From contig CAZCNL010000005.1 in assembly GCA_964500435.1 (NCBI GenBank), forward strand, positions 101,180 through 165,179: a stretch of 64,000 bases of DNA, read 5' to 3'. A model generated the notes under the pieces. It searched no databases, was not told the DNA's origin, and saw only the letters and a list, made by a program, of their open reading frames with translations. The stretch comes from an uncultured Chloroherpeton sp. Its GTDB lineage: Bacteria; Bacteroidota; Ignavibacteria; Kapaibacteriales; UBA2268. Made by a program: the position numbers and the translations under genes. Below, one piece after another: positions 6,261 to 63,672 of this stretch. Each line of letters opens with the position of its first letter. The stretch's first letter is position 1.

Positions 6261-6330
6261 TTTATTTACATTTTATATTTTTTCTAATTTAACAAATTCT
6301 TTATATATATAACAAGTGAACAGCAAAAAA

Positions 6331-45693: not shown

Positions 45694-45701
45694 TTTATGT
45701 T

Positions 45702-46355
45702 TTAATATTTAATTTTGTAATTTTCAAATTTATCTAAGTCTTCTAATTGTAATAGATACTTTGAAGGTCGTGGCTTACTATTAGAATTACGTCCTTGGCT
45801 AAAAAGACCTAATTTACTTATATTTTGTTGATTGATAATTAAAAAAATTAATTCAACAAGCTCAGCTCTGGTTTTCCTGTATCGAGAAAAACTTGTCCTT
45901 TCTATCCTTTTTAGTTCATAGGATGATAATCCACCTTTAAGTTCGGTATGCCATTTTTGGAAGCTTCTGTCGTTATCATTATATTCAACATCACATAATG
46001 CTATTAAAATACCGTGATACTTATTCAACTCTACTGATTTTTGCATACTTTCACTATCGTTTAAAATTAGAAGATGAGAGTTAGATTTAATAGCATGAGA
46101 TTTCAAATCCCAATTGATTGACCTTTTCATATCGAATTTTACATTACCGACTTTATCACCAGGAAATTGGAAATGGTCTTTTAAAGATTTATTAACCAAT
46201 AGTTCAAAGTAAAATCCAAACCATTCCATTTGTTTCCAATTATAATTTGCTTCTTTTAATTCTAAAATTGATGACTTTCCGTCCCATACTTTCGGTAGAT
46301 GTTTTAGTTTTTCACTAATTAATTCAATATCATCAAGATATTTCTTTTTCATCAA
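45702..46355 (-). CDS. hypothetical protein, candidate cognate type II restriction endonuclease
   Basis: 217 aa with no recognisable family. It sits 8 bp upstream of the MTase on the same strand. Confidence 0.35.
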   Translation of the reverse strand: MMKKKYLDDIELISEKLKHLPKVWDGKSSILELKEANYNWKQMEWFGFYFELLVNKSLKDHFQFPGDKVGNVKFDMKRSINWDLKSHAIKSNSHLLILNDSESMQKSVELNKYHGILIALCDVEYNDNDRSFQKWHTELKGGLSSYELKRIERTSFSRYRKTRAELVELIFLIINQQNISKLGLFSQGRNSNSKPRPSKYLLQLEDLDKFENYKIKY

Positions 46356-46367
46356 AGAATTTATAAG

Positions 46368-47654: not shown

Positions 47655-47786
47655 ATTATTTTTAACTCCTTTAAAATGAATATATTATATTGTTTTGTTT
47701 ATTAATAAAAAATTTTATTTACAAAATTAATGTATTAAACGTAAATTAACATAATTTTATTATTTAGCGAAATATTTCTAATTTTT

Positions 47787-48368
47787 TTAATAACATTCTT
47801 CTTCTATAATTTCACACAAAATATGACCAATCATTATATGAGTTTCTTGAATTCTTGCTGTATTATTCGAAGGAGAAATAAAGGAATAATCGCACATTTC
47901 AGCGATTTTTCCGCCATTTCCACCTAAAAATCCGATTACTGTGAGCTCTTTTGACTTTGCTGCTTCGATTGCACGGATTACATTTTCAGAATTACCACTT
48001 GTAGAAATTGCAATTAAAGCATCGCCAGTTTGAGCGAGTGCTTCGATTTGCCTGCTAAAAATATTATTGAAACCATAATCATTACCGCCAGCTGTTAAAA
48101 TTGAAGTATCCACCGTTAAAGCAATAGCTGGAATTGCGGGACGTTCGTATGAACTTCGTAAACGGACTACTAACTCTGCGGCTAAATGCTGGCTATCAGC
48201 AGCACTTCCTCCGTTTCCGCAAAATAATATTTTCTTCCCACTTTGAACAACTTCTGCAAGTTTTTTGCCTATGATTTCTATGTTCTTTATGGTATTTTTA
48301 TCTAAAATTGCTTGTTTAGTGGCAATACTTTCTTTAATCGACGATTCAATTTTGTGCTTATAATCCAT
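47787..48368 (-). CDS. gmhA: D-sedoheptulose-7-phosphate isomerase (SIS domain)
   Basis: 193 aa. ILFCGNGGSAADSQHLAAELVVR is the GmhA signature. Confidence 0.85.
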   Translation of the reverse strand: MDYKHKIESSIKESIATKQAILDKNTIKNIEIIGKKLAEVVQSGKKILFCGNGGSAADSQHLAAELVVRLRSSYERPAIPAIALTVDTSILTAGGNDYGFNNIFSRQIEALAQTGDALIAISTSGNSENVIRAIEAAKSKELTVIGFLGGNGGKIAEMCDYSFISPSNNTARIQETHIMIGHILCEIIEEECY

Positions 48369-48427
48369 ATTTTTTGGTTGATATTTTAATTTTAAATTAA
48401 ATAATATAAAGAAGAATTAATTTAATT

Positions 48428-49837
48428 TTGATTTTAAAAATGAACAATTTAGAGTTATATTTTCCAATTTTAAGTCCCTCGCTTTTGGCATATTATGTTT
48501 CAAAAGGAGAATGGAAATATTCAAGGCATTTACAATTAATCGAATCAAGCATCTTTGATATGCTTCGAGGTAATAAAAAGCACTTAATTGTAAATATGCC
48601 ACCAAGGCACGGCAAAAGTGAATTTATTTCGAAATATTTTCCATTTTGGTATCTCATAAATAATCCAAATAAAAGAATTATTTTAGTTTCGTACCAAGCA
48701 GGAATTGCTGAAGGTTGGAGCCGAAAAATTCGTGATTTGTTTGTAAATTATGGCGAGAAATTCGGCGTACGTTTAAATCCTCGACATAACAAATCGAATA
48801 GCTTTGGTTTTATGGAATATTCAGGTAGTCTGTATTCAGTCGGTATTGGAGGAGCGTTGACTGGTAAAGGTGCTGATTTATTGATTATTGATGACCCAGT
48901 GAAAAATGATGAAGAAGCGAATTCTTTGTTATTTCGTGATAAAATTTGGGAATGGTTCAATGCTACGGCAATGACAAGATTAGAACCGGATGGTCATTGT
49001 ATCGTTGTAATGACAAGATGGCACGAAGATGATTTAACAGGAAGAATTATAAATCATTCCTGCATCGATTTTAACTTAAATTGGAACTTGATTTCTTTGC
49101 CTGCAATTGCTCAAAAGAATGATTTAATTGGACGTCAAGAAGGTGAAGCTCTGTGGAAAGAACGATTTCCTATTAATAATTTGTTAAATTTAAAATCGCA
49201 AATTGGTTCTTATTGGTTTTCTTCACTTTACCAGCAAGAACCTGTGCCTTCGGGAAATAGCATTTTCAAGCGTGAAAATTTTAAATATTTTCAGGAATTT
49301 GATACTTATTATAACTTAGAAATTTCGCCAAGTTTAAATAAAAAGGTTTTGAAAGAAAATTTGACAATTATGGCGACTTCCGATTTGGCGATTTCAACAA
49401 ACGAAACATCGGATTATACAGTTATCCTGATTTTTGGCAAGAACAACGATGGAGATATATTAATTTTGGATATAATCCGAGAAAGATTTGAATTTTCGTC
49501 ACATATTTCAATGTTGAATGCAATATTTGCAAAATATCAACCAATTTTAATTGGCATCGAAAATGTGCAATTCCAGCAAGCTTTAATCCAAACTGCAATA
49601 AAATCCGGGTTGCCAATTAAATCTCTTCGAGCAGATAAAGATAAAATTTCCCGAGCTTTGCCTATTGCGTCTTTAATTGAAAACGGAAAAGTTTATTTTA
49701 AGAAAAATTCTGCCTACCTTGAAAGTTTTGAAAAAGAATTACTTAATTTTCCGAAAGGGAAAAATGACGACCAAGTCGATGCATTTGCTTATATTTCTCA
49801 GATGGTTACAATGAATAGTAAGCTTTTGCCAATTTAA
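48428..49837 (+). CDS. phage terminase large subunit (ATPase plus RNaseH-like nuclease), orphan
   Basis: 469 aa. The Walker A-like motif is NMPPRHGKSEF, the Walker B is GADLLIIDDP, and the coupling motif is VVMTRWHEDD. The C-terminal nuclease has an acidic triad (ATSDLAIS ... ENVQFQ ... NDDQVDAFAY). Confidence 0.8.
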   Translation: MILKMNNLELYFPILSPSLLAYYVSKGEWKYSRHLQLIESSIFDMLRGNKKHLIVNMPPRHGKSEFISKYFPFWYLINNPNKRIILVSYQAGIAEGWSRKIRDLFVNYGEKFGVRLNPRHNKSNSFGFMEYSGSLYSVGIGGALTGKGADLLIIDDPVKNDEEANSLLFRDKIWEWFNATAMTRLEPDGHCIVVMTRWHEDDLTGRIINHSCIDFNLNWNLISLPAIAQKNDLIGRQEGEALWKERFPINNLLNLKSQIGSYWFSSLYQQEPVPSGNSIFKRENFKYFQEFDTYYNLEISPSLNKKVLKENLTIMATSDLAISTNETSDYTVILIFGKNNDGDILILDIIRERFEFSSHISMLNAIFAKYQPILIGIENVQFQQALIQTAIKSGLPIKSLRADKDKISRALPIASLIENGKVYFKKNSAYLESFEKELLNFPKGKNDDQVDAFAYISQMVTMNSKLLPI

Positions 49838-52018: not shown

Positions 52019-52162
52019 CTACATTCAGAATAACGAGAAGAAGACGGTTGTATCATTGCCAGTAAACGAAAGTCGACGAAGCAGTCCCAAGAATGCAAGA
52101 GATTGCTTCGCTTCCGCTCGCAATGACTGGTTGAAAAATTTTTTTGTATCTGAATGTAACTT
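52019..52162 (+). repeat. nested-palindrome MITE-like element, copy D, with terminal inverted repeats
   Basis: The flanks acattcagaat ... attctgaatgt-like (tacattcagaa / atctgaatgta) are inverted. The internal sequence is cgacgaagcagtcc...gagattgcttcgcttccgctcgcaatgac. It sits 120 bp upstream of the 52283 gene. Confidence 0.75.
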
Positions 52163-52282
52163 TTTGCTTGTTTAATAGTCTTTGTTTATTATAATAGTGA
52201 AAAAATATAAAATATTTTGTTATTTAAATAAAAATTGTTATATTATAATTACTATTTTTACAAACTTTTTTAAGGTGTTAAT

Positions 52283-54874
52283 ATGAAAGAATTTTTACAG
52301 AAAATTGAACTTGAAGACAAAAAGGGCTTCAATGGTTCAATTGTTCAATGGTTCAATGGATTACGATTTATAATCGTATTTATTGTAATTATATTTATAT
52401 TTCCGAATAATTCTAATGCATTATCAGAAGGGAAGCTATCTTTCCTAAACTACTCATCGTTAACAGTAGTTGCAGATAGTATATTAAATGTTGGCGATAC
52501 TATCAAATTGCAACTAAATGTAACATCTCTTCAGCAAGATTCAGCAACAATATTGTGTCATGTTAGTAGGGGGTTATATATCTTGAACAATGATTCTGAA
52601 TTTTATAATATAAGAACTTATACAGATACAAATTCATTACAAAATATAGAAATTAGGTTAATAATTGATTCTATTCAAAATTGTTTTTTTGAATTGGTAA
52701 CAGTTTCTGATTTTAATATCGGATTATATGGAAATACAATATCATATCGAAGAGAATTGTTCATCAATGGTGGGAACGAATTAGTTTTAAACAATACTTA
52801 TGATAACAATGATGCAATTATAAATACAATTCAATATTCCCAACCAATTTGTACACTTCAAAATAACCACCATATAAAAATAAAAGGCAAGGTATCATTT
52901 CTTGATTGGAATGAACCAAAAACTTTTTATGCGAATGGTAATACATTAGAACATTTTCCGAGAAGGAAATCCCCGAGAACCACAGCATGGATTTTTTTCA
53001 GAACAAACGACCAACAAAATAAATTTTCTCATCCCATAAAATTTAATCAAATTACTGGAAAACCTATAAAAGGAATTCACTATGTAGAATGCATTGAGGG
53101 AACAAATTTTAATGAAGAGAGTGGTGAATTTATTTTCGAATTCGATTACAATCCACTATCTTTGTATTGTCAGGCTTATGAAAATATGACAGTAGAAATA
53201 TATATTGCAAAGGAAAATGAAGCAACATTATTAAATTCCGGGAGCGATCACATAATAGTATCAAATTACCCAAACCCTTTTAATACAACCAACGAATTAA
53301 AACTTTACCCTACAAAATATTTTAGCATTACTTATCCAAATGGTGTGCCACAAAATATTGATATTTCTTATATTACAACACCAGAACTTAATATTGAATT
53401 ACCTTTTGACGAGGGCGCCATGTTCAGATATATGACTATTTCAAGAGAATTTCTTAAAGATCTATATAACAATAACAACCTTGAATTTTCTGAAAATCGA
53501 AAGTTAAAACAGTGCAATTCAAATTTGTTATGGAGGGCACATACAGGCAGTGATCCGGGCGGTCAATATTCTTTTAATTCAAAGAACATTGATATTTATA
53601 AATATTATAATGGAAATGATCAAAATTATACAAATTGCAAAGTAATCGCTCATGAATATGGTCATTATTTTGATCATATATTAACAAATTGTGGTCATAA
53701 TGAAATAGAAGGATTTGCAATGTTTTTTTCTTATGCAGCTAATGTATGGATGAGAAATTCTTTTGGTGACTTTTTTGGTATAGAAGATGATTGTGAGATT
53801 GGTCCATTTTGCAAGTTTATGGTAAATGATGTTGTCCTTACTAAGAATGGAGTATCATATAATAGATACGGTAATATCACTAAATTGGGTGTACCTGATA
53901 TAAATTCTTGCAGATTTGCTTGTTATTTATGGAATATTTATGACTCTAAAAGTGACCAGCCATTTTCACCAATTAATGATTGGGACGGTATGGCAAATGA
54001 CGATATCGAAGATTTACGAGAAGATCTAATGGACTTTTGGATTGAATTACCATTAGATGGAGTTAATTTTTCAGGTTTTAATGATTCTTTGAAAAACAAA
54101 TATTCTGCTAATGTAAGACTTCAAAATTCTTTACAAGCAATATATGATTTCATGGATTTTCCGTCAGGTAGTTTTAATCCATCAATTGAAAATATTTCGG
54201 CAAGAATGAGAAGCCCAAATATACAATCAATGAGTTATACTACTAACGTAATAAATAATCAAATCTATGTTAAGTTCTTATGGGGTGATGATATATCTTA
54301 TAAAAATATACCATTTGAATCTATTTACAAAGATACTAAATATGTATATCCATTTCAGAATACTCCTCAATCTATAAGACTTTCTCACAATTATACTAAT
54401 TCGGATGAATGGCAAGTTTATGAAACAATTGAAAATTATATCAATGTTAAAGAAAGTGAGTGGTATTTAACTAATAATGATATTCCATACGACAAATTTA
54501 AATTATCGACTTTGAATACTAATTCAGAAGAGTCTTACCAACCATTAATAGTTAATTTTGGGATTCCAATGGCAAAAATTGCTTATAATGATTTGGAAGT
54601 TTCAGACATTTCTCTTAACTTAACAACCTATAAAATTGAAAACTTATTAACTATCAGTTCATTAGATAAGATTGATATTAAAATGATTAGGTTTTATAAT
54701 ATTGAAGGTAAAATTGTAAATGAAATTGCAATAAATGATGGTTTTTCATTGTATCATTCAATTGATTTAAGCAATACAGTTCATAATATCAGTTCACAAT
54801 CATTATTTATGCAAATAATATTTACAGATAGAAATAATAAGTTACATTTCATTAATTATAAATTAATAAAATAA
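52283..54874 (+). CDS. large secreted protein with HEXXH zinc-metalloprotease-like motif and T9SS C-terminal sorting domain
   Basis: 863 aa with an N-terminal TM/signal region. The internal motif is AHEYGHYFDH. The C-terminal ~90 aa (IRFYNIEGKIVNEI...FMQIIF) is CTD-like. Confidence 0.55.
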   Translation: MKEFLQKIELEDKKGFNGSIVQWFNGLRFIIVFIVIIFIFPNNSNALSEGKLSFLNYSSLTVVADSILNVGDTIKLQLNVTSLQQDSATILCHVSRGLYILNNDSEFYNIRTYTDTNSLQNIEIRLIIDSIQNCFFELVTVSDFNIGLYGNTISYRRELFINGGNELVLNNTYDNNDAIINTIQYSQPICTLQNNHHIKIKGKVSFLDWNEPKTFYANGNTLEHFPRRKSPRTTAWIFFRTNDQQNKFSHPIKFNQITGKPIKGIHYVECIEGTNFNEESGEFIFEFDYNPLSLYCQAYENMTVEIYIAKENEATLLNSGSDHIIVSNYPNPFNTTNELKLYPTKYFSITYPNGVPQNIDISYITTPELNIELPFDEGAMFRYMTISREFLKDLYNNNNLEFSENRKLKQCNSNLLWRAHTGSDPGGQYSFNSKNIDIYKYYNGNDQNYTNCKVIAHEYGHYFDHILTNCGHNEIEGFAMFFSYAANVWMRNSFGDFFGIEDDCEIGPFCKFMVNDVVLTKNGVSYNRYGNITKLGVPDINSCRFACYLWNIYDSKSDQPFSPINDWDGMANDDIEDLREDLMDFWIELPLDGVNFSGFNDSLKNKYSANVRLQNSLQAIYDFMDFPSGSFNPSIENISARMRSPNIQSMSYTTNVINNQIYVKFLWGDDISYKNIPFESIYKDTKYVYPFQNTPQSIRLSHNYTNSDEWQVYETIENYINVKESEWYLTNNDIPYDKFKLSTLNTNSEESYQPLIVNFGIPMAKIAYNDLEVSDISLNLTTYKIENLLTISSLDKIDIKMIRFYNIEGKIVNEIAINDGFSLYHSIDLSNTVHNISSQSLFMQIIFTDRNNKLHFINYKLIK

Positions 54875-54885
54875 AGGGGGCTATA

Positions 54886-56499
54886 ATGAAAAAAGTATAT
54901 ATTATTTTATTAACCTTGGTTTTCTTCCAATTTAATAAATTGTTTTCTGAAAATTGGGAACCTTTTCCATTGAATCAAACTTCATACTATAAAATAACAA
55001 AAGCAAAATATCTTTGGATTGATAATATTTTTGAAAGCAAAGATTTGATCGACGCTATAACAATAATAAAATTCGATTCAGTAACAAATCAAAATTCAAA
55101 TAATAAAAAATATTACTCACAAATAATAAAAAATAACGATAAATGTCTTTTAAGTAAACAAGATACATTATGGGATAAATATGATCACTTACAGAATCTA
55201 CAACCAAAGTCGTATATTTTTGTTGACGATACTTTAGTATTCCTAATTAAGGATGAGCATAATATTTCAAATACTTGCTTAAAGTTGCCATTAAATTTAG
55301 ATAATAGTAAATCCTATTTCCAAATAAATTATGATAGCAATTTCAATTCTACTATGAAAATTGAAACTAAATTAATCTCTAAAACAGAAAAATCAATTTT
55401 TGGTATCAAAGATTCAATAATTACTTTTGAGATACAAAGAAGACGAGTGCCAGAAAAAGAAGATGGTACTTTTATAATTGAGTTAAGCAAAACTTTTGGG
55501 CTAATAAAATATTTCCCTTTAGACATACTTTTTAATTGGTCGTTATCTGCTCAAATTCAAGAGATAGAATTAGCTTCTGTCGATAAAAATCAAGAGCATT
55601 ATGGCGAGGTTTATGATTTTAAATATCGCAATCGTAACTTATTTGAAAAGCCCAGAAATATTAAAATATATAGGGATGTCTGGGGTGTTAATTCCTGGGA
55701 TTATGTATTTATACGAGATTCAATAATTAGTGTCGACAATTCAGAGGACTTTGTTTTTGTAGTATATAATCGCCAAACATTATCGTCTAATCAAGGAGTA
55801 AAACCGAATATTAATATAAATTATACATATACTTACTTAAAAAAAGATAGTATAATTTATGAAGGATTTAATGCTATGGTAGATGCCCTCCGAAGAGGCG
55901 AAACTTTTATTCCAAGTGCACATTTATTTGATAAAGTTCCTAACAATGAAACTAAGCAAATTGACGATTCATTAGAAGTTATTGCTACTCCATTATTATT
56001 TAAATTTGTTGATAAATGTGGTCACAAAGATCTACAGATATTTTATGTTTTTGATGCAACATTAGATAGAGAAAATTGCTTTCTTCAAAATCGATTTTTT
56101 GTAAACAAGATATTAGATTATAAAATGGATTTGTGGTGGGAGATCAATAACTATGGACCGTGGCGAACTGATGACCTCTATATTGGTTTCAAAGATGGCG
56201 ATTGTGAATGGGGCGATTTAAGTTGGCCACCCAAGGAAGTATCAGTCTCGCAAGAGCAGCAATATCATTATCAACTCTTCCCCAACCCAGTTCGTTCAAC
56301 AACACGGGTGAATTTGCAACAAGAGGGGCAAGTGGCGATTACGGCAGTGGATTTGCTTGGACACTCGTTCCCGCTTTGGTCGGGCTATGCAAGCACCGGC
56401 ACTCTGGAACTTGACGTCAGCACCTTGCCGACAGGCTCCTACACCTTGCTCATCGATTACGGCACAAAACGAGAAGCAGTACGGATGATGAAGGAGTAG
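54886..56499 (+). CDS. T9SS C-terminal-domain secreted protein, paralog 1
   Basis: 537 aa with a signal peptide. The CTD is LFPNPVRSTTRVNLQQEGQVAITAVDLLGHSFPLWSG...TLLIDYGTKREAVRMMKE. It is about 80% identical to 60579-62177 and only 11 bp downstream of the previous gene, so probably co-transcribed. Confidence 0.7.
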   Translation: MKKVYIILLTLVFFQFNKLFSENWEPFPLNQTSYYKITKAKYLWIDNIFESKDLIDAITIIKFDSVTNQNSNNKKYYSQIIKNNDKCLLSKQDTLWDKYDHLQNLQPKSYIFVDDTLVFLIKDEHNISNTCLKLPLNLDNSKSYFQINYDSNFNSTMKIETKLISKTEKSIFGIKDSIITFEIQRRRVPEKEDGTFIIELSKTFGLIKYFPLDILFNWSLSAQIQEIELASVDKNQEHYGEVYDFKYRNRNLFEKPRNIKIYRDVWGVNSWDYVFIRDSIISVDNSEDFVFVVYNRQTLSSNQGVKPNININYTYTYLKKDSIIYEGFNAMVDALRRGETFIPSAHLFDKVPNNETKQIDDSLEVIATPLLFKFVDKCGHKDLQIFYVFDATLDRENCFLQNRFFVNKILDYKMDLWWEINNYGPWRTDDLYIGFKDGDCEWGDLSWPPKEVSVSQEQQYHYQLFPNPVRSTTRVNLQQEGQVAITAVDLLGHSFPLWSGYASTGTLELDVSTLPTGSYTLLIDYGTKREAVRMMKE

Positions 56500-56507
56500 G
56501 GCTATTT

Positions 56508-56563
56508 AACCTTCAGAAGGTTCTTTTCACCAGATGTCCTACACCTCCAAGGTGTAGGACATC
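56508..56563 (+). terminator. tandem hairpins after paralog 1 (terminator-like)
   Basis: AACCTTCaGAAGGTT followed by a T-rich tract, then the perfect 13-bp stem GATGTCCTACACCtccaaGGTGTAGGACATC. The same pair occurs at 62186-62241. Confidence 0.6.
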
Positions 56564-56628
56564 TTAGTTTCTACTTCCCCTTCCTTAAAGCGGTGTCACG
56601 CAGTGCCGGGGCAGGCATTATTATAAAA

Positions 56629-56760
56629 TCCCGTTTTCAAGGGAATGACAAATTTGCTGGTCTTTGCGAGGAGTTTAAGCGAAGAAGCAATCTGAGAAAG
56701 GTATTGCTTCGCTTACGCTCGCAATGAAGAAAATAAATTTCTTGCATTTGAATGTAATTT
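56629..56760 (+). repeat. nested-palindrome MITE-like element, copy E
   Basis: tcccgttttcaagggaatgacaaatttgc...ttgcgaggag...gaagcaatctgagaaaggtattgcttcgcttacgctcgcaatga...ttgcatttgaatgtaattttttgcc. Confidence 0.8.
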
Positions 56761-56799
56761 TTTGCCAAAATTTTTGTCTTTATTTTAAGAAAAAAATAA

Positions 56800-57180
56800 T
56801 TTGTTAAATTAGAGAAAGAGAAAGCTGCAAAACTAAAAAAATAAATGGTTGTAATTAATAAAAATATTGAGAAGGCGGGAAATACGGAAAATGGCATAGG
56901 ATGGGCTTTATGGCTTTATGGCTTTATGTGGATGCCTCAAGAATATTTTTATTGCATTGAAACTGCGATTTATTCAAATTTTCCAAAGAAAGAAAAATTA
57001 CTTTGTTCAAATAAATTTTGCCGAAAAAAATTATTTATTTACAACTGCGAGTGGAAATTCATTGCGTTTAGCGGGCTGATGCTGTTTTCCTGAAAGATTT
57101 TTGGATAATAGCAGAAGTCTGCAAAAGCCGCTCGCAGTTCCACTGGGCAGAGCGAAAGCTTGGAACTGTTCGAATAATGC
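56800..57180 (+). repeat. conserved ~350-bp leader element, copy 2 (3x octamer repeat)
   Basis: Colinear with 62470-62860 at roughly 85-90% identity, and with the reverse complement of 5900-6260. GCTTTATG occurs 3 times at 56898-56921. The tail contains the hairpin CAGTTCCA...GCGAAAGC...TGGAACTG. Confidence 0.8.
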
Positions 57181-57225
57181 TCGGGAAAGTAAATATTTTA
57201 TGTAAAAAATATAAAAGAGGAAAAA

Positions 57226-57867
57226 ATGAAGAATATTATAATTAAATTAGTATTATTAATAATTATATTTACGGGAATAAGTATCAAAGCAACTTCACAA
57301 ATACCAAATAATTGTCCGGATGGATTTACGATGATTGAAGCTCAAATTCCAGTAACTGAAAATGGCAATACTTGTATTTACCAAGTGTTTTTGTGTACCA
57401 AATGTCAAGCAGGGACGTATCCAGGCTCGATATTGACAGAAATAATGGTGCATGCAATGAGACCGATAGATGAGAACTGCCAATGTAATCCAGATGTAGT
57501 TATGAATGCTATAGTGGATAAAATAAATGATGTAAATTGGCTTGCACAATTTATAAGTAATTGTGGAAATGGATGGCCCCCTTGTTCAGGAAATCCGGCA
57601 AATTACATACGAATAGAATATTACTATCCAAAATGCTGGAAGTGGGAATACTTCTTTTACAATGAAGAACCGCCATACGAATATGATATTTTTAAAGTTG
57701 CAGGATGTGATTGCTTTTGTAGATGGACAAAAACTTTTTGTTGGGATGGTAGCAGATTAATTGAAATAATAGAATTAGCCACACCCCCAGAACGAACAGG
57801 TACATGTGAGTGTTTGCAACCTGAATATAATGGAGAATGTTGGTCAGAAGATAGTGTCTGTCAGTAA
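57226..57867 (+). CDS. Cys/Trp-rich small secreted protein
   Basis: 213 aa with a signal peptide, about 24 Cys and many Trp/Tyr/Pro. No CTD is evident. It lies 45 bp downstream of leader copy 2. Confidence 0.6.
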   Translation: MKNIIIKLVLLIIIFTGISIKATSQIPNNCPDGFTMIEAQIPVTENGNTCIYQVFLCTKCQAGTYPGSILTEIMVHAMRPIDENCQCNPDVVMNAIVDKINDVNWLAQFISNCGNGWPPCSGNPANYIRIEYYYPKCWKWEYFFYNEEPPYEYDIFKVAGCDCFCRWTKTFCWDGSRLIEIIELATPPERTGTCECLQPEYNGECWSEDSVCQ

Positions 57868-57957
57868 AAATGAAAAAGTGCCCCAATTTCCAGAAATTGG
57901 GGCTATATAATACAAAATGTCAACAGTTTTATTTTATATTTAATATGGAGTTACAAG

Positions 57958-60309
57958 ATGAAAATTCTTTTAAGAGTTAATTTGATAATTTTAATTTGTT
58001 TAATATCAATCCAAAATTCATATTCTACAAATTGGGAATTTATTAAAGGTCCTGGGAATAACAAGGGCGTTTATGCTATAGATACGTATGGAAATGATAT
58101 TTATATTGGGTTAAATTCCGCAAAATTATATAAAAGTACAAATTATGGTACTTCATGGATTGAAATTAAATATAATGACTCTCTGCCTTTTCTTGATATT
58201 ACAACTATAGCCAAAGTTAAGTCTAATTTATTTATACTATCATCATTTCGTTCGAAACCTCCTTTTTATGAATTAGCAGTTTCCCAAGATGATGGATTAA
58301 ATTGGAATGAGGTTATCATGGATGATACATTATATTTTTATTATTTTATTAAAAAAGATAAGAATGATTTATATTGCTCATATTATTCTAAGAAATCAAA
58401 TTCGATGCCATCAACAAAATTTGCAAAATTCGATTATAATAACAATAATTGGATAAATTTAGTTGATTCAATTTCATTAAAAAAAATATATTCTTCTGCA
58501 AAGTCCATAGCAAAATATGGAAATAAAATATTAATAGGGTGTTCAATAGTTAAACCAAGTGTAGATGCGGGAGTAAAAACTATACCAGTTATTTATATTT
58601 ATGATACCCAATCCCAAAATTTACAACCGATAGTTGATACATTAAGTGACTTATGGAAAAGTTATATAAATTGCTTTTTAATTAAAGGGGACGATATATT
58701 TATCGGAACATCAACGGGAGTTTACAAATCAACAGATGGTGGATTAACCTGGACAAGAAAAAGCAGTGGTTTACACTTCAAGAATGAATATTATGATTAT
58801 GATTATGAAATACATAAAATGTGTGAATTTGAAGGGAATATATATGCAATAACAAATCCACCGAGCACTTATGGCTATTTTAATACAAATAGTTCCACAT
58901 TAGTGTATAGCACGGATAATGGAGAAAGTTGGCAGAATAGTGAATTATTTTCATATGACATATTTGTAGCAGATATGCCTCAAGATTTTGCAGTTATTAA
59001 TAATAAATTATTAATAAGCACATTAGATGGATTATTCGAAGTAGATAAAGATTTAACAAAGAAAACACAGTTAATAAATGATACATTAAGCAGCGGGACA
59101 GTGCAAGATTTTTATGTCGATAATGAAAAGATAATTGCGACAAAATTCAATGATTTTATATACCAAACAAACGTGAAAAATAACGGGAAATGGGAAAGGT
59201 TAGCAAAAAAACAGGCATTTCCAATCGCTAACGTTGATAATTTCTGCAAGAACAATGAAAATATATATGCATTAGTAGGATATAATGGATATGTGAGTGG
59301 CTCTTTTGCAATATCAAACGATACAGGCAATACATTTTGGTTTGTAAATGAAAAAGATACCACAATGCTGAATTTACAATATTATAGCATATATGCACAT
59401 ACAAACGATTCAGTCTATGTAACGACGAGTAAGGGAATATTTCTATCGAATGACGAAGGAAAGACATGGCATAGAATAACAGGAGATGGATTTATGTATA
59501 AAGTGATGAAAATGATAAAAATAGATGAAAATATATTTGCGGGTACACTTGATTATGGTTTAATAAAGTCGGTAGATGGGGGTAAGTCGTGGGAAAAGAA
59601 AAAATTACCAACGAAATATGATGAAATAACAATAAAAGATATATTATATCACGATAATAAAATATATTTAGCAACAAAACAATATTACGATCCTGAAAAA
59701 AAAATATTAGTTAATGGAGAAGGCATATTTATGTCGTCTGATTTAGGAGAAAGTTGGGAAAAGAAAAACAATGGATATCCAGACTCACTCGAAACAGCAA
59801 GTTTAGCCAGTTACGGAGATTATATATTTGCAGCAACGAATTGGTATGGGAGTGTGTATTATTCGACGAATGGCGGAGAAAAATGGCATTCGATAAACAA
59901 GGGATTGTCAGGATATTCATTAAGTAGAATCAAGGTATTTGGAGGTTATTTATACGCAGGTACATCGACTGGACTATATAAATATAATTTAAAGAATTTA
60001 ATAACAAGCGTAGATGAAATCGAGAAGCGGAATTATTTATATTCGATGCAACCCTATCCGATACCTGCAACAAATCGAGTGCAAGCAGAAATATATTGGG
60101 ATAAAGCATTAGATATAAATCAAGCAGACATCAAGGTTTATAATATTTATGGCGAAGAAATCAACAGCAAGGACAAAATCAAAGTCATACCCGAAAGCGA
60201 TTGGTATGGCAAAATAATTTGGAACTGCGAAGGAAACGAACCTGGAGTATACATCATTACAATAAATTACGGCACCGAGAAAAAAGCAATAAAGGTAATA
60301 AAGAATTAG
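57958..60309 (+). CDS. BNR/Asp-box repeat (sortilin/Ycf48/xyloglucanase-like) protein with T9SS C-terminal sorting domain
   Basis: 783 aa with a signal peptide and at least 9 Asp-box motifs (STNYGTSW, SQDDGLNW, STDGGLTW, STDNGESW, SNDEGKTW, SVDGGKSW, SSDLGESW, STNGGEKW...). The C-terminal CTD reads YPIPATNRVQ...GVYIITINYGTEKKAIKVIKN. Confidence 0.75.
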   Translation: MKILLRVNLIILICLISIQNSYSTNWEFIKGPGNNKGVYAIDTYGNDIYIGLNSAKLYKSTNYGTSWIEIKYNDSLPFLDITTIAKVKSNLFILSSFRSKPPFYELAVSQDDGLNWNEVIMDDTLYFYYFIKKDKNDLYCSYYSKKSNSMPSTKFAKFDYNNNNWINLVDSISLKKIYSSAKSIAKYGNKILIGCSIVKPSVDAGVKTIPVIYIYDTQSQNLQPIVDTLSDLWKSYINCFLIKGDDIFIGTSTGVYKSTDGGLTWTRKSSGLHFKNEYYDYDYEIHKMCEFEGNIYAITNPPSTYGYFNTNSSTLVYSTDNGESWQNSELFSYDIFVADMPQDFAVINNKLLISTLDGLFEVDKDLTKKTQLINDTLSSGTVQDFYVDNEKIIATKFNDFIYQTNVKNNGKWERLAKKQAFPIANVDNFCKNNENIYALVGYNGYVSGSFAISNDTGNTFWFVNEKDTTMLNLQYYSIYAHTNDSVYVTTSKGIFLSNDEGKTWHRITGDGFMYKVMKMIKIDENIFAGTLDYGLIKSVDGGKSWEKKKLPTKYDEITIKDILYHDNKIYLATKQYYDPEKKILVNGEGIFMSSDLGESWEKKNNGYPDSLETASLASYGDYIFAATNWYGSVYYSTNGGEKWHSINKGLSGYSLSRIKVFGGYLYAGTSTGLYKYNLKNLITSVDEIEKRNYLYSMQPYPIPATNRVQAEIYWDKALDINQADIKVYNIYGEEINSKDKIKVIPESDWYGKIIWNCEGNEPGVYIITINYGTEKKAIKVIKN

Positions 60310-60318
60310 GTGCTTGAT

Positions 60319-60460
60319 TCCCGTTTTCACGGGAATGACAAATTTGCAAGTCATTGCGAGGAGACGAAGTCGACGAAGCAATCTCAGGAAGGGATTGCTT
60401 CGCTACGCTCGCAATGACATAAAAAAATTTTTTTTGCATCAAAATGTAATTTTTTGCCAA
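60319..60460 (+). repeat. nested-palindrome MITE-like element, copy F
   Basis: ATTCCCGttttcaCGGGAATgacaaatttgcaaGTCATTGCGAGgagacgaagtcgacGAAGCAATCtcaggaagGGATTGCTTCgctacgCTCGCAATGACat...ttgcatcaaaatgtaattttttgcc. It is upstream of paralog 2. Confidence 0.85.
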
Positions 60461-60578
60461 ATTTTTTGTCTTTATTTTTAAAAAATAATTTATTAAATTA
60501 GAAGTGTTAGAAGTAAGAAAGTAAATAATATTCTTCAAATACTGTTGAAATCTCTTTTATAAAATAAAAGGTCTTACA

Positions 60579-62177
60579 ATGAAAAAAGTATATATTATTT
60601 TATTAACCTTGATTTTCTTTGAATTTAATAATTTGTTTTCTGAAAATTGGGAACCCTTTCCATTGAATCAAACCTCTTATTATAAGATAACAAAAACAAA
60701 ATTACCTTATACTACAAATTTTGAAAGTAAAGATTTAATAGATGCAATAACAATAATTAAATTCGATTCAGTATCAAATCAAAATTCAAATAATAAAAAA
60801 TATTTCTCACAAATATTAAAAGTTAACGATAGTTGCATTATCAGTAAAAAAGATTCTTTATGGAATGATGATTTCCCAAATTTACAGCCAGAGGCATATC
60901 TTTTTCTTGGTGATACATTAGTATTCTTAATTAAGGAAGAGCATAATATTTCAAATACTTGCTTAAAGTTGCCATTAAATTTAGATCAAAGTGACTCCTA
61001 TTTCCAAATTAATTATGATAGCAATTACAATTCTACTATGAAGATAGAAACTAAGTTAATTTCTAAGACAGAAAAATCAGTTTTTGGTATTATAGATTCA
61101 GTAATTACTTTTGAAATTCAAAGAAACCGATTGCCTACAAAAGATGATGGTGTTTTTTTAATTGAGTTAAGTAAAAAATTTGGGCTAATAAAATTTTTCC
61201 CCTTAGATATTCTTGCTTATGGGGGGCTATTTGATCAAATTCAGCAATTAGAATTGGTATCGGTAGATGAAAACAAAGAACATTATGGCGAGGTTTATAA
61301 TTTCAAATATCGTAACCGTAACTTATTTGAAAAGCCCGGAAATATTAAAATATATGAGAATATATGGGGTGAACCTTGGGATTTGGTGTTTATTAGAGAT
61401 TCTATAATTAGTGTTGACAATTCAGATGATAGAGTTTATGTGGAATATAATCGACAAACAATGTCTACAAATCAAGGTATTAAACCGGACATAAATCAAA
61501 ATTATAAATATTTTTATTTTAAAAAAGATAGTTTAATTCATTATGGATTTAATGCAATGGTTGATGCCCTTCGAAGAGGTGAGACATTTATTCCGAGTAC
61601 AAATTTATTTGACAAAATTCCAAATGAGAAACCAACGCAAACACCCTTGGAAATAATTGCAACACCATTGTTATTCAAATTTATTGAAAAATGTGGTCAA
61701 AAAGATTTACAGATTTTTTATATTTACCAAGCTGGCTTGGATAGAGGAAATTGCACTCTTCCAATGAAATTTTTTTGGTACCGAATATTGGATTATAAAA
61801 TGGATTTGTGGTGGGAGTGCAATAACGAAAACATTTTTCCAAGCTTAGGGGACCACTATGTTGGTATTAAAGATGGCGATTGTGAATGGGGGGATTTATC
61901 GTGGCCTCCAAAGGGACTTTCTGTTTTTGAAGGACAGCAATATAATTCTTATCTCTCCCCTAACCCAGCTCGTTCAATTACACGATTAAATTTACAGCAA
62001 GAGGGAGATATATCTATAACGGCAGTGGATTTGCTTGGTCGCTCGTATCCCCTTTGGTCGGGCTACGCAAGCAGCGGCGATATGGAACTTGACGTAAGTA
62101 CCTTACCGACAGGCTCATACACCTTGCTAATTGATTACGGCACAAAGCGAGAAGCAGTACGGATGATGAAGGAGTAG
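60579..62177 (+). CDS. T9SS C-terminal-domain secreted protein, paralog 2
   Basis: 532 aa, colinear with 54886-56499 over its full length, with the same CTD. Confidence 0.7.
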   Translation: MKKVYIILLTLIFFEFNNLFSENWEPFPLNQTSYYKITKTKLPYTTNFESKDLIDAITIIKFDSVSNQNSNNKKYFSQILKVNDSCIISKKDSLWNDDFPNLQPEAYLFLGDTLVFLIKEEHNISNTCLKLPLNLDQSDSYFQINYDSNYNSTMKIETKLISKTEKSVFGIIDSVITFEIQRNRLPTKDDGVFLIELSKKFGLIKFFPLDILAYGGLFDQIQQLELVSVDENKEHYGEVYNFKYRNRNLFEKPGNIKIYENIWGEPWDLVFIRDSIISVDNSDDRVYVEYNRQTMSTNQGIKPDINQNYKYFYFKKDSLIHYGFNAMVDALRRGETFIPSTNLFDKIPNEKPTQTPLEIIATPLLFKFIEKCGQKDLQIFYIYQAGLDRGNCTLPMKFFWYRILDYKMDLWWECNNENIFPSLGDHYVGIKDGDCEWGDLSWPPKGLSVFEGQQYNSYLSPNPARSITRLNLQQEGDISITAVDLLGRSYPLWSGYASSGDMELDVSTLPTGSYTLLIDYGTKREAVRMMKE

Positions 62178-62185
62178 GGCTATTT

Positions 62186-62241
62186 AACCTTCAGAAGGTT
62201 TTTTTCACCAGATGTCCTACACCTCCAAGGTGTAGGACATC
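62186..62241 (+). terminator. tandem hairpins after paralog 2 (terminator-like)
   Basis: AACCTTCaGAAGGTTttttttc, then GATGTCCTACACCtccaaGGTGTAGGACATC. Confidence 0.65.
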
Positions 62242-62306
62242 TTAATTTCTACTTCCACTTCCTTGAAGGGGTGGCACGTAGTGACGGGGAGGTATAATTA
62301 TAAAAT

Positions 62307-62440
62307 CCCGTTTTCAAGGGAATTAAAAATTTGCAAGTCATTGCGAGGAGCGTGAGCGACGAAGCAATCTCAGGAAGGGATTGCTTCGCTACGCTCGCAA
62401 TGACGAAAAATTTTTTGCATTAGAATGTAATTTTTTGCCA
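62307..62440 (+). repeat. nested-palindrome MITE-like element, copy G
   Basis: tcccgttttcaagggaat...gtcattgcgaggagcgtgagcgacgaagcaatctcaggaagggattgcttcgctacgctcgcaatgacg...ttgcattagaatgtaattttttgcc. Confidence 0.85.
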
Positions 62441-62469
62441 AATTTTTTGTCTTTGTTTTTAAAATAATT

Positions 62470-62860
62470 TGTTAAATTATAGGAAGAGAAAGCTGCAAAA
62501 CAAGAAAATATATGGTTGTAATTAATAAAAATAAAGAAAAGGCGGGAAGTTCGGAAAAGGGCATAGAATGGGCTTTATGGCTTTATGTAGACGCCTCAAG
62601 AATATTTATATTGTATTGAAACTGCGATTTATTCAAATTTTCCAAAGAAAGAAAAATTACTTTGTTCAAATAAATTTTGCCGAAAAAAATTATTTATTTA
62701 CAACTGCGAGTGGAAATTCATTGCGTTTAGCGGGCTGATGCTATTTTGTCGAAACAATATAATTTGTTTTGGGAATTAGCAAAAGTCCGCTGAAATCGCT
62801 CGCAGTTCTATTGGGCAGGGCGAAAGTTTGGAACTGTGCCAGTAATGCCTGAAAAAAATC
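62470..62860 (+). repeat. conserved ~350-bp leader element, copy 3 (2x octamer repeat)
   Basis: Colinear with copy 2. GCTTTATG occurs twice at 62571-62586. The short ORF that is open in copies 1 and 2 is interrupted here by a TGA, which argues that the element is non-coding. Confidence 0.8.
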
Positions 62861-62886
62861 AATAATTTTAAAATTTAAGGTGATTA

Positions 62887-63672
62887 ATGAAAAAGATATT
62901 TATTTTATCGGTTGTATTATTGCTTTTATTCTTTAGTAGTATAAATACTATGAGAGCTCAATTGGAGAATTGTTATCCAACTAATCAAAATGAAACTTGT
63001 ACCGATTGGACAGGTTCATCATTTGAATTTACTTATATGAGCTGTAACGTCCATATAGATTATTATTACAGAGTTTGCAAAGACCCTACTGGATGTGAGG
63101 GACAACCTAAAGTCAGAATAGATGCTCGTATATTCCAAATTGTTTGGGATTGGGATAACTGCTTAAATTTAACTCAAGCTATATATCCAGGTTATCCAAA
63201 TGATTTCGGTACGATGAATTATGTTCAATTTGCATCATTGTTTAATTTAGCAAGCAGGCAAATGGGGGAAACATCTTTTATAAATTATTACAATTCGCAC
63301 CCTGACGAACAAATTTCACTACAATGCTATGGTACACCTCCTGATTGTTCAGACCCAGACCCAAATAGTTGTAATTTTTCTGTATATTATTCAAATTTCT
63401 CGTGTGAGATGATTTGTTGGCATATTAAAGATGCAGGAACAGGTTGGGCTGGTCCTGGAGTAATTGTAAATAATTATCCTTGTACATCTGCAAATTCAAC
63501 TTGCTGTGAACACATTGCTCACTATTGTATGTGTGGCGATCAAGTGCATTCAATTATTTCAGTAAATGGAACAGGTTTATGTAATGATGCTATTCCTCCT
63601 TATGATTCTTGCTTCGAATTAGAACATTATACGACTTATTCAAGTAATGGTTGTATTACAATTTGCGAGTAA
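62887..63672 (+). CDS. Cys/Trp-rich small secreted protein
   Basis: 261 aa with a signal peptide and about 30 Cys. It is unrelated in sequence to the 57226 product but similar in composition, and lies 27 bp downstream of leader copy 3. Confidence 0.6.
   Translation: MKKIFILSVVLLLLFFSSINTMRAQLENCYPTNQNETCTDWTGSSFEFTYMSCNVHIDYYYRVCKDPTGCEGQPKVRIDARIFQIVWDWDNCLNLTQAIYPGYPNDFGTMNYVQFASLFNLASRQMGETSFINYYNSHPDEQISLQCYGTPPDCSDPDPNSCNFSVYYSNFSCEMICWHIKDAGTGWAGPGVIVNNYPCTSANSTCCEHIAHYCMCGDQVHSIISVNGTGLCNDAIPPYDSCFELEHYTTYSSNGCITICE

Follow-up and report, generated by a model that had tools for sequence, protein, structure and literature searches.

A repeated leader ahead of unrelated secreted-protein genes most likely holds a short translated reading frame that is reset by an unstable 8-base repeat

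Why does nearly the same leader stand in front of three different secreted-protein genes, and is it kept as DNA, as RNA or as protein? The question is raised by the window (the whole stretch of 64,000 nucleotides analysed here), in which a first-pass annotation had described three colinear copies of such a leader, each upstream of, and co-oriented with, a signal-peptide gene. Alignment, together with an exact search for the 22-mer TTGTTCAAATAAATTTTGCCGA that returned precisely three matches (at 6050, 57003 and 62662, with none expected from 100 shuffles), established that the copies are real, and each does face its gene in this way; the positions given for the copies held, but their extent did not, as the aligned spans are longer. 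The copies (by colinear alignment) and their downstream genes are:

~6450-5880, minus strand: leader copy 1
56660-57190, plus strand: leader copy 2
62338-62860, plus strand: leader copy 3
4916-5842, minus strand: gene downstream of copy 1 (308 aa, signal peptide, 14 Cys, C-terminal T9SS sorting domain, family F4)
57226-57867, plus strand: gene downstream of copy 2 (213 aa, signal peptide, 17 Cys, family F2; RBS AAGAGGAA)
62887-63672, plus strand: gene downstream of copy 3 (261 aa, signal peptide, 20 Cys, family F1)

The leader is a composite, made up of a palindrome and promoter-like block, an upstream open reading frame (uORF), a (GGCTTTAT)n tract, a core and an RNA tail, followed by an RBS and the signal-peptide gene. 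Its conservation is not simply a by-product of gene duplication, since about 40 relatives of the leader lie ahead of at least six unrelated protein families. The downstream proteins fall into 13 BLASTP clusters (E < 1e-3), 7 of them with two or more members (6 true families) and 6 singletons, and each gene carries an RBS and either a signal peptide or a lipobox. The three products in the window had been described as unalignable, and BLASTP indeed detects no significant similarity among them (E = 0.43, 1.6 and 0.051); yet the description does not hold at the profile level for the families of copies 2 and 3, where an hhalign match (81.5%, E 1e-5) suggests, as a weak link, that F2 and F1 are remote relatives. 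Copies 2 and 3 also have in common the 3' end of 74%-identical upstream paralogues, and part of their similarity is therefore due to segmental duplication. Many of the secreted proteins behind the leader are Cys-rich. When the model of the 213-aa Cys-rich protein was compared with the PDB by Foldseek, it had no counterpart there (best E 0.047, TM 0.13). Genes for SprA and for numerous T9SS cargo proteins are present in the organism.

The 5' portion of the element proved to be shared more widely than the leader itself:

56660-56727, no strand: long imperfect palindrome of copy 2 (TCTTTGCGAGGAG..GAAGCAAT / ATTGCTTCG..CTCGCAATGA), repeated elsewhere
56738-56812, plus strand: promoter-like block of copy 2 (TTCTTGCATTTGAATGTAATTTTTTGCC ... 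AATTTGTTAAATTAG), kept in all copies and in distant relatives
62338-62481, plus strand: palindrome (62338-62404) and promoter-like block (62411-62481) of copy 3
6284-6437, minus strand: palindrome (6364-6437) and promoter-like block (6284-6351) of copy 1

Besides copy 2, the palindrome recurs at 6364-6437, 52064-52130, 60349-60417 and 62338-62404, so that the palindrome and promoter-like module is present five times in the window, twice without a leader (52064-52230 and 60349-60500), and the promoter-like block is likewise found ahead of two leaderless genes, at 52283 and 60579. A generic palindrome/promoter module, not specific to the leader, thus makes up the upstream third of the element. 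The genes upstream of copies 1 and 2 end in terminators (6474-6502 and 56532-56564, respectively), and the promoter-like block of copy 2 sits downstream of the latter. We dropped a reading of the block TTAAATTAG as a Bacteroidetes -7 box, as the full Bacteroidetes -33/-7 pattern is found upstream of none of the 45 window ORFs examined.

The recurrence of the leader (at least three copies in 64 kb and eight in one MAG) before unrelated genes, with a tail type (see below) that is independent of gene family and an upstream palindrome module that is itself repeated five times, could also be read as the trace of a mobile or recombinational element, be it a MITE, an IS end or a cassette-acceptor site that takes up one effector gene in exchange for another. 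However, the unit is not flanked by terminal inverted repeats; scans of 55 window ORFs, which comprise every long ORF that does not overlap another, and of the surroundings of 12 related loci with Pfam-marked called genes turned up no transposase, integrase or invertase; the neighbours are housekeeping genes; and both the orientation relative to the gene (identical in all ~45 copies) and the distance from the core end to the downstream start codon (147-188 nt) are fixed, as in a regulatory region. We therefore regard an origin as a mobile element as very improbable. The leader is not the arm of an IS, and the cassette-acceptor idea put forward in the first-pass annotation finds no direct support in the form of a recombinase, terminal repeats or attC-like sites. 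Two related candidates were also rejected: the inverted repeats that surround the element (I2, I3 and I8) as recombination sites, because they are A/T-rich and not colinear, and a Bacteroides-type invertible promoter, on account of the same inverted repeats, the single orientation and the lack of a recombinase.

A different picture emerges from the middle of the leader, which carries a perfect tandem repeat, (GGCTTTAT)n, that Tandem Repeats Finder locates in the three copies as follows:

6147-6194, minus strand: (GGCTTTAT)x6 tract of copy 1
56904-56927, plus strand: (GGCTTTAT)x3 tract of copy 2, inside the uORF
62571-62586, plus strand: (GGCTTTAT)x2 tract of copy 3

The unit number is 6, 3 and 2 in copies 1, 2 and 3 and ranges from 1 to 12 in the ~40 relatives. 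The tract is hypervariable: two pairs of loci from different assemblies whose 400-nt flanks are 100% identical differ by 4 versus 5 and 12 versus 8 units, and another pair from different assemblies (L045 and L046, both beside a peptidase M24 gene) has 7 versus 12. The three frame classes of the unit number are about equally filled (11 : 15 : 9), as expected of an unselected, switching tract; an initial impression that unit numbers are mostly multiples of three, as under selection for one frame, was dropped after this proper count. Distant lineages have a tract at this position too, but built from different units (GGCTTATT in L018 and L041, GGCTCTAT in L043), and it is therefore conserved as a feature rather than as a sequence. 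A search for a conserved complement to the repeat unit within the leader found none, and a possible A/U helix surrounds the tract in ~18 of 28 copies.

These observations bear on the earlier argument that the ORF is frame-broken in copy 3 and hence that the leader is not conserved as protein. The break arises because copy 3 has 2 units where the others have 3 and 6; a change of TGG to TAG at 62588-62590 also closes frame 0. As the break is caused by the tract itself, it is no evidence against translation, and the argument falls. Read from the repeats, the break in copy 3 is instead the signature of slipped-strand phase variation. The reading frames that contain the tract are:

5942-6253, minus strand: uORF of copy 1, long form, frame 0, 103 codons
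56845-57093, plus strand: uORF of copy 2, long form, frame 0, 82 codons
62512-62619, plus strand: uORF of copy 3, short form, 35 codons, its 2 repeat units giving the closed frame

The tract begins 19 codons past a conserved ATG. Among 29 unique sequences with a median nucleotide identity of 62%, this ATG and the 18-20 codons before the tract are open in 27, while the other two frames of the same stretch accumulate 105 and 48 stops, and its only two indels are 3 nt each. Thus, the start of the uORF is maintained across diverged sequences. In the predicted translations, tracts with n = 2, 5 or 8 lead to short products of 28-51 aa that stop 91-136 nt before the core end, and the other two classes of n lead to long products of 67-118 aa that stop 1-139 nt past the core, beyond a segment termed box 2 (see below). 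Exceptions in length are L011 (49 aa, with an in-frame stop in the core), L026 (19 aa, with a stop before the tract) and L028, whose contig ends before the stop. No RBS precedes the uORF in the three window copies, unlike the downstream genes. Most likely, a short reading frame within the leader is translated, and changes in the unstable 8-base repeat reset its frame.

Downstream of the tract lies a core of 120 nt:

6011-6130, minus strand: core of copy 1, with box 2 at 6020-6031
56944-57063, plus strand: core of copy 2, with frames 0 and 1 open and frame 2 closed by the TGA at 56957-56959
62603-62722, plus strand: core of copy 3, with box 2 at 62702-62713

No indel occurs in the core in 31 unique copies, and two of its frames are open: frame 0 contains a stop in 1 and frame 1 in 0 of the 31 unique cores, compared to 31 for frame 2. 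Only 18 of 20,000 dinucleotide shuffles of the core yield two open frames (P ~0.0009), and substitutions on the consensus core that create a stop in frame 0 or 1 number 4 of 62 versus 9.1 expected (P = 0.04). The arrangement of two long frames and one short frame is also found in five diverged lineages with active tracts, and in the two cases of tract loss frame 1 closes after 81 nt (L037) and after 12 nt (L044, read by hand). The core is invariant in a block-wise manner at all codon positions, which could equally reflect a binding site for protein or RNA that is unrelated to translation.

Might the frame-0 product (~80-118 aa) itself be functional, as a phase-variable small protein that is co-transcribed with the secreted protein? 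Such a product would have a charged N-terminus, a repeat-encoded hydrophobic (ALWLYGFM)n stretch and the motifs YFYCI.T...LFI.NCEWKFI, and its homologues are called as ORFs in several assemblies (11 matches in one search and 14 in another). There are synonymous changes (TGC CGA to TGT AGA or TGT CGG, and TTA to CTC in L042), indels of 6 and 21 nt in distant cores are in frame, and there is the analogy to Neisseria opa, whose signal peptide is encoded in part by CTCTT repeats. For distant homologues, frame 0 has a pN/pS of 0.52 versus 0.91 and 0.92 in the other frames, a comparison that is biased downwards because this set was found through ORF or peptide searches, whereas in close copies frames 0 and 1 are alike (0.48 versus 0.57). 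Moreover, only about one third of the copies are in frame 0, the stop position and the C-terminus vary widely between copies, the Cys residues are not kept in distant homologues, neither Pfam nor NCBIfam has a match, and AlphaFold2 predicts no fold for the 82-aa product (pLDDT 42, pTM 0.21). On balance, we think it quite improbable that the frame-0 protein is the functional product of the leader.

The 3' part of the leader was next in line for structural analysis by inverted-repeat searches and RNA folding, which placed the following features:

5880-6010, minus strand: structured tail of copy 1, type B (z = -2.19), with helix P2 (GCTACAAAGC/GCTTTGTAGC) and an inner hairpin
57064-57190, plus strand: structured tail of copy 2, type A (MFE -73.3 kcal/mol, z = -3.93)
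62723-62860, plus strand: structured tail of copy 3, type A, with the P1 3' arm at 62796-62807
57043-57054, plus strand: box 2 of copy 2 (AACTGCGAGTGG), 5' arm of the long-range helix P1, from the inverted-repeat search and from RNAalifold (columns 100-111 with 197-208)
57128-57139, plus strand: P1 3' arm of copy 2 (CCGCTCGCAGTT), overlapping the 5' arm of an alternative hairpin

The hairpin CAGTTCCA...GCGAAAGC...TGGAACTG (57135-57168) that had been noted in the first-pass annotation is present, and its variants keep pairing by way of G-U pairs. It corresponds to the alternative hairpin of copy 2, with arms CAGTTCCA (57135-57142) and TGGAACTG (57161-57168) and a GAAA loop at 57154-57157. The suggestion of a structured RNA leader ahead of different genes was likewise borne out: the tail of copy 2 folds in a strand-specific manner (sense z = -3.93 versus antisense z = -0.87), and tail helices are kept through G-U changes, so that the fold predictions support a strand-specific RNA structure in the 3' part of the leader. 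The 12-bp helix P1 is predicted in every type A copy and, as a split helix, in type B; in copy 2, box 1 (56955-56968) may pair with the same tail segment as box 2, and the type B loop GTGGTA of copy 1 is complementary to a downstream TACCAC. A type B structure drawn by hand is 93.5% paired, compared to 28-54% in slid controls. L042 has an entirely different sequence in both arms of helix P2 (GGGCAACGC/GCGUUGCCC), and both partners of its box 2/tail pairing are altered. Covariation in the tails of the aligned leader copies is sparse because the copies are close relatives, and in a shuffle control the observed level is not separated from random. As no complement to box 2 is found in the distant tails of L037 or L043 and L018 has only a 7-nt match, P1 is claimed for type A, type B and L042 only. 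In both tail types the last elements are hairpins, after which the sequence is A-rich, and a consensus scan for an intrinsic terminator (stem-loop and U-tract) inside the leaders of copies 1 and 2 found none. Masking the ribosome-covered RNA raises the predicted accessibility of the RBS from 0.50 to 0.60, an increase that is expected from masking alone and is non-discriminating.

With such structure in place, the leader could be a purely RNA-level cis-regulatory element (similar to a riboswitch, or the target of a protein or small RNA), in which the core and tail act as the sensor, the ORF is incidental and the tract is a neutral, hypermutable spacer. Strand-specific folding with helices kept via G-U pairs speaks for it, as do the invariance of the core in blocks of 15-21 nt at all codon positions (variable columns 14/10/15 over positions 1/2/3, from close copies and hence uninformative by themselves), G/C-ending codons (AAC TGC GAG TGG AAA TTC) that are fixed in a genome of 31% G+C, the occurrence of the motif GGGCATAGGATGG in a different reading frame in L041, and the unstructured peptide. 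However, it leaves unexplained the conserved ATG with its 19-codon open frame, the two open frames over 120 nt, and the perfect tract that is regenerated at the same place from different units in distant lineages; the regulated genes have no common metabolic theme that would point to a ligand; and the leader is not known to Rfam. The covariance-model search called for earlier was run over the whole window with Rfam 15 and gave no match at the gathering score, and at E values of up to 10 only weak, unrelated miRNA, sRNA and snoRNA matches appeared (9-16 bits versus cut-offs of 50-64). We therefore consider a purely RNA-level leader unlikely.

How might the reading frame and the RNA structure be connected? 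Our preferred reading, rated at about even, is that the 5' leader is modular and serves secreted-protein operons as a contingency (phase-variation) switch. Transcription would start in the promoter-like module that is common to other genes, giving an RNA with the conserved AUG and ~19 codons of unconstrained sequence near its 5' end. The ORF would then enter the perfect (GGCTTTAT)n tract, in which slipped-strand mispairing would alter n and each 8-nt step would shift the frame. At n = 2, 5 or 8 the ribosome would stop at or just before the core start, releasing a peptide of 28-51 aa, and at n = 3, 6 or 12, or n = 1, 4 or 7, it would read the whole core in one of the two open frames and run on into the folded tail (67-118 aa). 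Box 2 (AACUGCGAGUGG) is predicted to pair with a tail segment 70-110 nt downstream to form P1, which would exclude the hairpin CAGUUCYA/URGAACUG in type A tails and compete with the loop-to-3' pairing GUGGUAA/UUACCAC in type B tails. Ribosomes on the long ORFs would have to melt P1, and the tail would refold. The output step is our inference, as no intrinsic terminator was found: refolding of the tail and/or protection of a ~300-nt untranslated stretch (from Rho-type termination or decay) may set the gene high or low, such that each operon would switch stochastically and independently of the others. The sequences themselves establish the layout of the leader, the hypervariable tract, the upkeep of the ORF start and of two open frames, and an RNA fold specific to the sense strand, whereas a common RNA for leader and gene, translation of the uORF and the identity of the ON frame are inferred.

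More tentatively, and with slightly less than even confidence, the leader may be a self-contained, portable phase-variation cassette, comprising promoter module, uORF, octanucleotide tract, two-frame core and two interchangeable RNA-switch types, that has spread through a free-living lineage of Kapabacteria/Ignavibacteria type to stand before many unrelated operons for secreted proteins, lipoproteins and T9SS cargo. In that case every cell would display a combinatorial, stochastically switching secretome, and the extreme conservation of the core would stem from dual-frame translation together with RNA pairing. If the switch is confirmed, contingency loci would serve secretome bet-hedging outside pathogens, one leader design would be reusable across a regulon, and selection could hold two frames open for no other purpose than to bring ribosomes into an RNA switch. 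For annotation, it would follow that a perfect short tandem repeat next to a "frame-broken" small ORF is a reason not to discard the ORF as non-coding.

In phase variation by intragenic repeats, such as the CTCTT repeats of Neisseria opa and the tetranucleotide loci of Haemophilus, genes are switched on and off by the unit number modulo 3. The tract described here resembles them in being a perfect short repeat near the 5' end of an ORF that encodes a hydrophobic stretch, but it lies in a separate uORF, 260-330 nt upstream of the regulated start codon, and two of the three frames stay open throughout a 120-nt stretch. With attenuators and riboswitches the leader has in common a set of predicted mutually exclusive helices (box 1 or box 2 with CGCAGUU versus CAGUUCYA with URGAACUG), the choice among which would follow ribosome position. 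Unlike these systems, it shows no runs of regulatory codons, no terminator and no Rfam match, and its input would be mutation (the repeat number) rather than a metabolite or charged tRNA. Another parallel is the heptanucleotide repeat hairpin in the 5'-UTR of Haemophilus influenzae hmw1A, which is processed by RNase III (PMC12721329). In both cases a simple-sequence repeat lies in a long, structured 5' leader (presumably transcribed here) of an adhesin or secreted-protein gene, with RNA structure taking part in phase variation. The hmw1A repeats, however, form one arm of a hairpin, expression is inverse to repeat number and no reading frame is involved (PMC12721329), whereas our tract is inside an ORF, has no conserved complement, and the frame (n modulo 3) is likely the variable.

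By analogy, the nearest precedent is the leader of the Streptococcus gallolyticus pil1 (and pil3) locus, in which phase variation of a leader peptide is coupled to transcription attenuation (Danne et al. 2014, PMC3894217) and the GCAGA repeats of pil1 yield three frames, one short and two long, through which a structure further downstream is controlled (PMC3894217). In both leaders a tandem repeat sits within a short ORF at the 5' end of the operon (with leader and gene presumably on a single transcript here); in both, repeat number varies (here 4 versus 5 and 12 versus 8 units with identical flanks, between assemblies), repeat gain or loss shifts the frame, with a short peptide as the outcome in one frame and, in the other two, long peptides that extend into RNA structure, and the regulated genes encode surface or secreted proteins. 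They differ in the unit (8 nt in 1-12 copies here, compared to the 5-nt GCAGA in ~22 copies in pil1), in the stem-loop terminator with a U-tract, of which none was found here, and in the 120-nt invariant core with a long-range helix into a ~130-nt multi-helix tail of two alternative types. The host here belongs to a Kapabacteria/Ignavibacteria-like branch of the FCB group rather than being a host-adapted Gram-positive. To our knowledge, nearly all known cases of repeat-driven phase variation come from host-adapted pathogens, and in the literature searched the variant that combines a leader peptide with RNA structure is confined to one streptococcal species. The same logic would recur here as a conserved multi-copy module of uncultured environmental FCB-group bacteria, placed before secreted proteins and T9SS cargo, with at least eight copies per genome and at least six unrelated gene families behind it.

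Three segments of the window (6450-5800 on the minus strand, 56500-57260 and 62190-62920) align in MAFFT at a mean column identity of 77%, with a stretch of ~115 nt nearly identical across all three, and a 22-mer taken from this stretch has exactly three matches in the window, where none is expected. Each copy is followed, in the orientation of the leader, by a signal-peptide gene, and BLASTP detected no similarity among the three downstream products, bearing out the first-pass annotation, which had described a conserved leader in front of three Cys-rich genes with essentially no alignable sequence in common. The genes upstream of copies 2 and 3 are paralogues (74% identical), while copy 1 has no shared upstream similarity; since these paralogues precede both copies, the additional upstream similarity of copies 2 and 3 reflects a segmental duplication.

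The leader unit is composite. It begins with an upstream module that sits 3' of the preceding genes' terminators and consists of an imperfect palindrome of ~70 nt (TCATTGCGAGGAGC..CGACGAAGCAATC / GATTGCTTCGC..CGCTCGCAATGA) and a promoter-like block (TTTTTTGCATCTGAATGTAATTTTTTGCC ... AATTTGTTAAATTAG). Five instances of it lie in the window, two of them (before the genes at 52283 and 60579) with no leader behind, and it is thus a separable, putatively promoter-type module. The palindrome half-site has 12 matches compared to ~1 expected, and the palindrome could be an operator, an insulator or a REP-like repeat. Next come an upstream ORF that opens with ATG and 18-20 codons, a perfect (GGCTTTAT)n tract, a core of exactly 120 nt (no indels in 31 unique copies), a tail of ~130 nt that is of type A or type B, an A/U-rich spacer and a ribosome-binding site, with the downstream start codon 147-188 nt past the core.

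Leader copies and upstream modules in the window (palindromes are intergenic and always followed by TTTTTTGCATCTGAATGTAATTTTTTGCC)
~6450-5880, minus strand: copy 1; palindrome 6364-6437; n = 6; upstream ORF long; tail B
52064-52130: palindrome of the module before the gene at 52283
56660-57190, plus strand: copy 2; palindrome 56660-56727; n = 3; upstream ORF long; tail A
60349-60417: palindrome of the module before the gene at 60579
62338-62860, plus strand: copy 3; palindrome 62338-62404; n = 2; upstream ORF short; tail A

The 82-aa ORF of the leader has 11 called homologues, and 14 by a profile search covering 1.8 billion representatives; searches by peptide and DNA pattern, together with exact look-up of proteins, gathered ~45 copies of the element. 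They come from metagenomes and from MAGs that carry the labels Bacteroidetes bacterium BP6.bin56 (8 copies), Candidatus Kapabacteria, 'Chloroherpeton sp.' and Ignavibacteria. At least six unrelated families are represented among the downstream proteins (Cys-rich of ~200 aa, Cys-rich of ~263 aa, a Cys-rich 308-aa T9SS protein, lipoproteins, a 135-aa family and BNR proteins of ~775 aa), alongside singletons, and the sole link between families is a weak profile match of F1 and F2, the families downstream of copies 3 and 2, respectively (hhalign 81.5%, E 1e-5). Conservation of the leader is therefore not a mere by-product of gene duplication. Tail type is independent of gene family, as F1 lies behind A and B tails alike. 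We found no transposase or integrase among the 55 window ORFs scanned; the window is chromosomal and encodes SprA and several T9SS cargo proteins as well as housekeeping functions.

No part of the element changes faster than the tract, which as a feature is maintained: its unit number varies, and its position is kept even with other units. Across copies it spans 1 to 12 units; two locus pairs with 100% identical 400-nt flanks differ in unit number (4 versus 5; 12 versus 8), as do L045 and L046, related loci from other assemblies that both adjoin a peptidase M24 gene (7 versus 12). Distant lineages keep a perfect tract of another unit (GGCTTATT, GGCTCTAT) at the same position, and in two lineages the tract has decayed. 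The classes of n modulo 3 are near-equal (11 : 15 : 9), which argues against selection for a single fixed frame and fits a switching tract.

ORF length depends on unit number. With n = 2, 5 or 8 the upstream ORF ends at or before the core start (28-51 aa), with n = 3, 6 or 12 frame 0 is read on to 82-118 aa (L011, with an in-frame stop, is the exception), and with n = 1, 4 or 7 frame 1 is read on to 67-114 aa, except in L026 (stop ahead of the tract) and L028 (contig end reached before a stop). Stops occur in 1 of 31 unique cores in frame 0, in none in frame 1 and in all 31 in frame 2. Of 20,000 dinucleotide-shuffled cores only 18 had two open frames, and of the observed substitutions, set on the consensus core, 4 would create a stop in frame 0 or 1, versus 9.1 expected (P = 0.04). 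Five diverged lineages with active tracts likewise have two long frames and a short one; where tracts are active, the second core frame is open for 96-285 nt. In distant L037 and L044, whose tracts have decayed to three imperfect units, that frame closes after 81 nt and 12 nt, respectively (L044 read by hand); these two cases suggest that tract decay accompanies loss of the second open frame. Copy 3 carries TAG at 62588-62590, directly after the tract, where all other copies have TGG, so that frame 0 is closed at any repeat number and frame 1 alone can yield a long upstream ORF.

Between ATG and tract, median identity is 62% and the frame is open in 27 of 29 unique sequences, compared to 105 and 48 stops in the other two frames, and the peptide itself is not conserved in this stretch (variable columns 13/13/13 by codon position), a pattern expected of a regulatory upstream ORF. 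For close copies, pN/pS is 0.48 and 0.57 in frames 0 and 1, respectively; for distant copies, which however had been found via their ORFs, it is 0.52 in frame 0 versus ~0.9 in the other frames. The Cys residues of the frame-0 peptide are not conserved and its AlphaFold2 model has a pLDDT of 42; the case for a function of this peptide in itself is weak.

From core to start codon, the RNA of copy 2 has a predicted folding energy of -73.3 kcal/mol (z = -3.93), compared to z = -0.87 for its antisense strand, with z = -2.19 for copy 1; the leader has no Rfam match. In ten type A leaders, RNAalifold predicts that the core segment box 2 (AACUGCGAGUGG) pairs with CCGCUCGCAGUU 73-85 nt downstream, forming a 12-bp helix (P1) that encloses a three-helix domain. 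The first-pass annotation had noticed a hairpin with a GAAA loop, and this hairpin (CAGUUCYA/URGAACUG, inner GRGC-GAAA-GYYY stem) is indeed present in type A tails; the 3' arm of P1 overlaps its 5' arm, and the two pairings are mutually exclusive. A second core segment, box 1 (core positions 12-25), could likewise pair with the tail partner of box 2. In seventeen type B leaders box 2 is again predicted to pair downstream (UGC:GYA and GUGG:CCAC), with an 11-bp helix (P2) and an inner hairpin lying between the arms, and alternatively the CCAC segment can pair with the hairpin loop GUGGUAA. The hand-drawn type B structure is 93.5% paired, versus 28-54% with partners slid, although covariation is sparse and the shuffle control non-discriminating. 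In distant L042, P2 is wholly replaced by GGGCAACGC/GCGUUGCCC and both arms of the box 2/tail pairing have changed (CUGC/GCAG to AUGC/GCAU). In ~18 of 28 copies (window 56857-56868 with 56942-56953; loci L003, L005, L007, L009-L011), the opening codons of the upstream ORF, in many cases with the AUG, show 10-16 nt of complementarity to the invariant core start (UAUUUUUAUUGUAUU), the 5' partner differing among N-terminal families; the repeat tract would lie in the loop of the resulting A/U helix.

The element is best read as a repeat-switched, probably translated, structured leader of the phase-variation type. The earlier reading as a conserved structured leader is supported; an argument against translation of the ORF from the broken frame of copy 3 is not. 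We give an even chance to a contingency switch in which tract slippage would set the upstream ORF frame. In one class of n, ribosomes would halt ahead of box 2 and P1 would remain; in the other two they would cross box 2 into the tail, P1 would melt and the alternative fold would form, and long-form ribosomes would also shield an otherwise naked leader of ~300 nt. No intrinsic terminator was found in the leaders of copies 1 and 2, and the downstream gene might be affected through ribosome-binding-site exposure, RNA stability or Rho-type termination. Masking ribosome-covered RNA modestly raised predicted ribosome-binding-site accessibility, a rise expected from masking alone.

Two of the leaders lie in a cluster of genes for secreted proteins whose architecture repeats (52283-63672), in the order 863 aa and 537 aa; leader, 213 aa and a 783-aa BNR/F510_1955-like protein; module and 532 aa (paralogous to the 537-aa protein); leader and 261 aa. 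At related loci (L003, L042), too, the leader often precedes a small Cys-rich protein with a BNR/sortilin-like T9SS protein after it. For the 213-aa protein, AlphaFold2 gives a mostly beta model (pLDDT 72.7, pTM 0.69), to which Foldseek found no match in the PDB (best E 0.047); it may represent a new disulfide-rich secreted fold. The SprA_N domain identifies a T9SS translocon, and the methylase and terminase-like ORFs, which lie amid housekeeping genes with no integrase found nearby (44671-49837), may be a prophage remnant.

Other ORFs of the window
3510-4850, 4916-5842, 46368-47654, 54886-56499, 57958-60309, 60579-62177: T9SS C-terminal sorting domain, scoring at or close to the curated cut-off (at least six such ORFs)
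15240-22139: 2299-aa ORF with SprA_N domain
44671-45693: N6/N4 DNA methylase
48428-49837: terminase large-subunit-like (Terminase_6N/6C)
57226-57867: 213-aa Cys-rich protein of copy 2
62887-63672: 261-aa Cys-rich protein of copy 3

Full-text searches of the literature turned up no such leader for Bacteroidota or related phyla. Among known systems, the pil1 leader of S. gallolyticus comes closest: there, a leader peptide containing GCAGA repeats has one short frame and two long ones, and a terminator is overridden by the long peptides (PMC3894217). The present leader shares the frame logic set by repeats, with one short and two long frames, but lacks the terminator that defines pil1 and differs in unit length, invariant two-frame core, two tail types, copy number and host lineage. 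The repeat hairpin in the 5'-UTR of H. influenzae hmw (PMC12721329) is a second, more distant relative.
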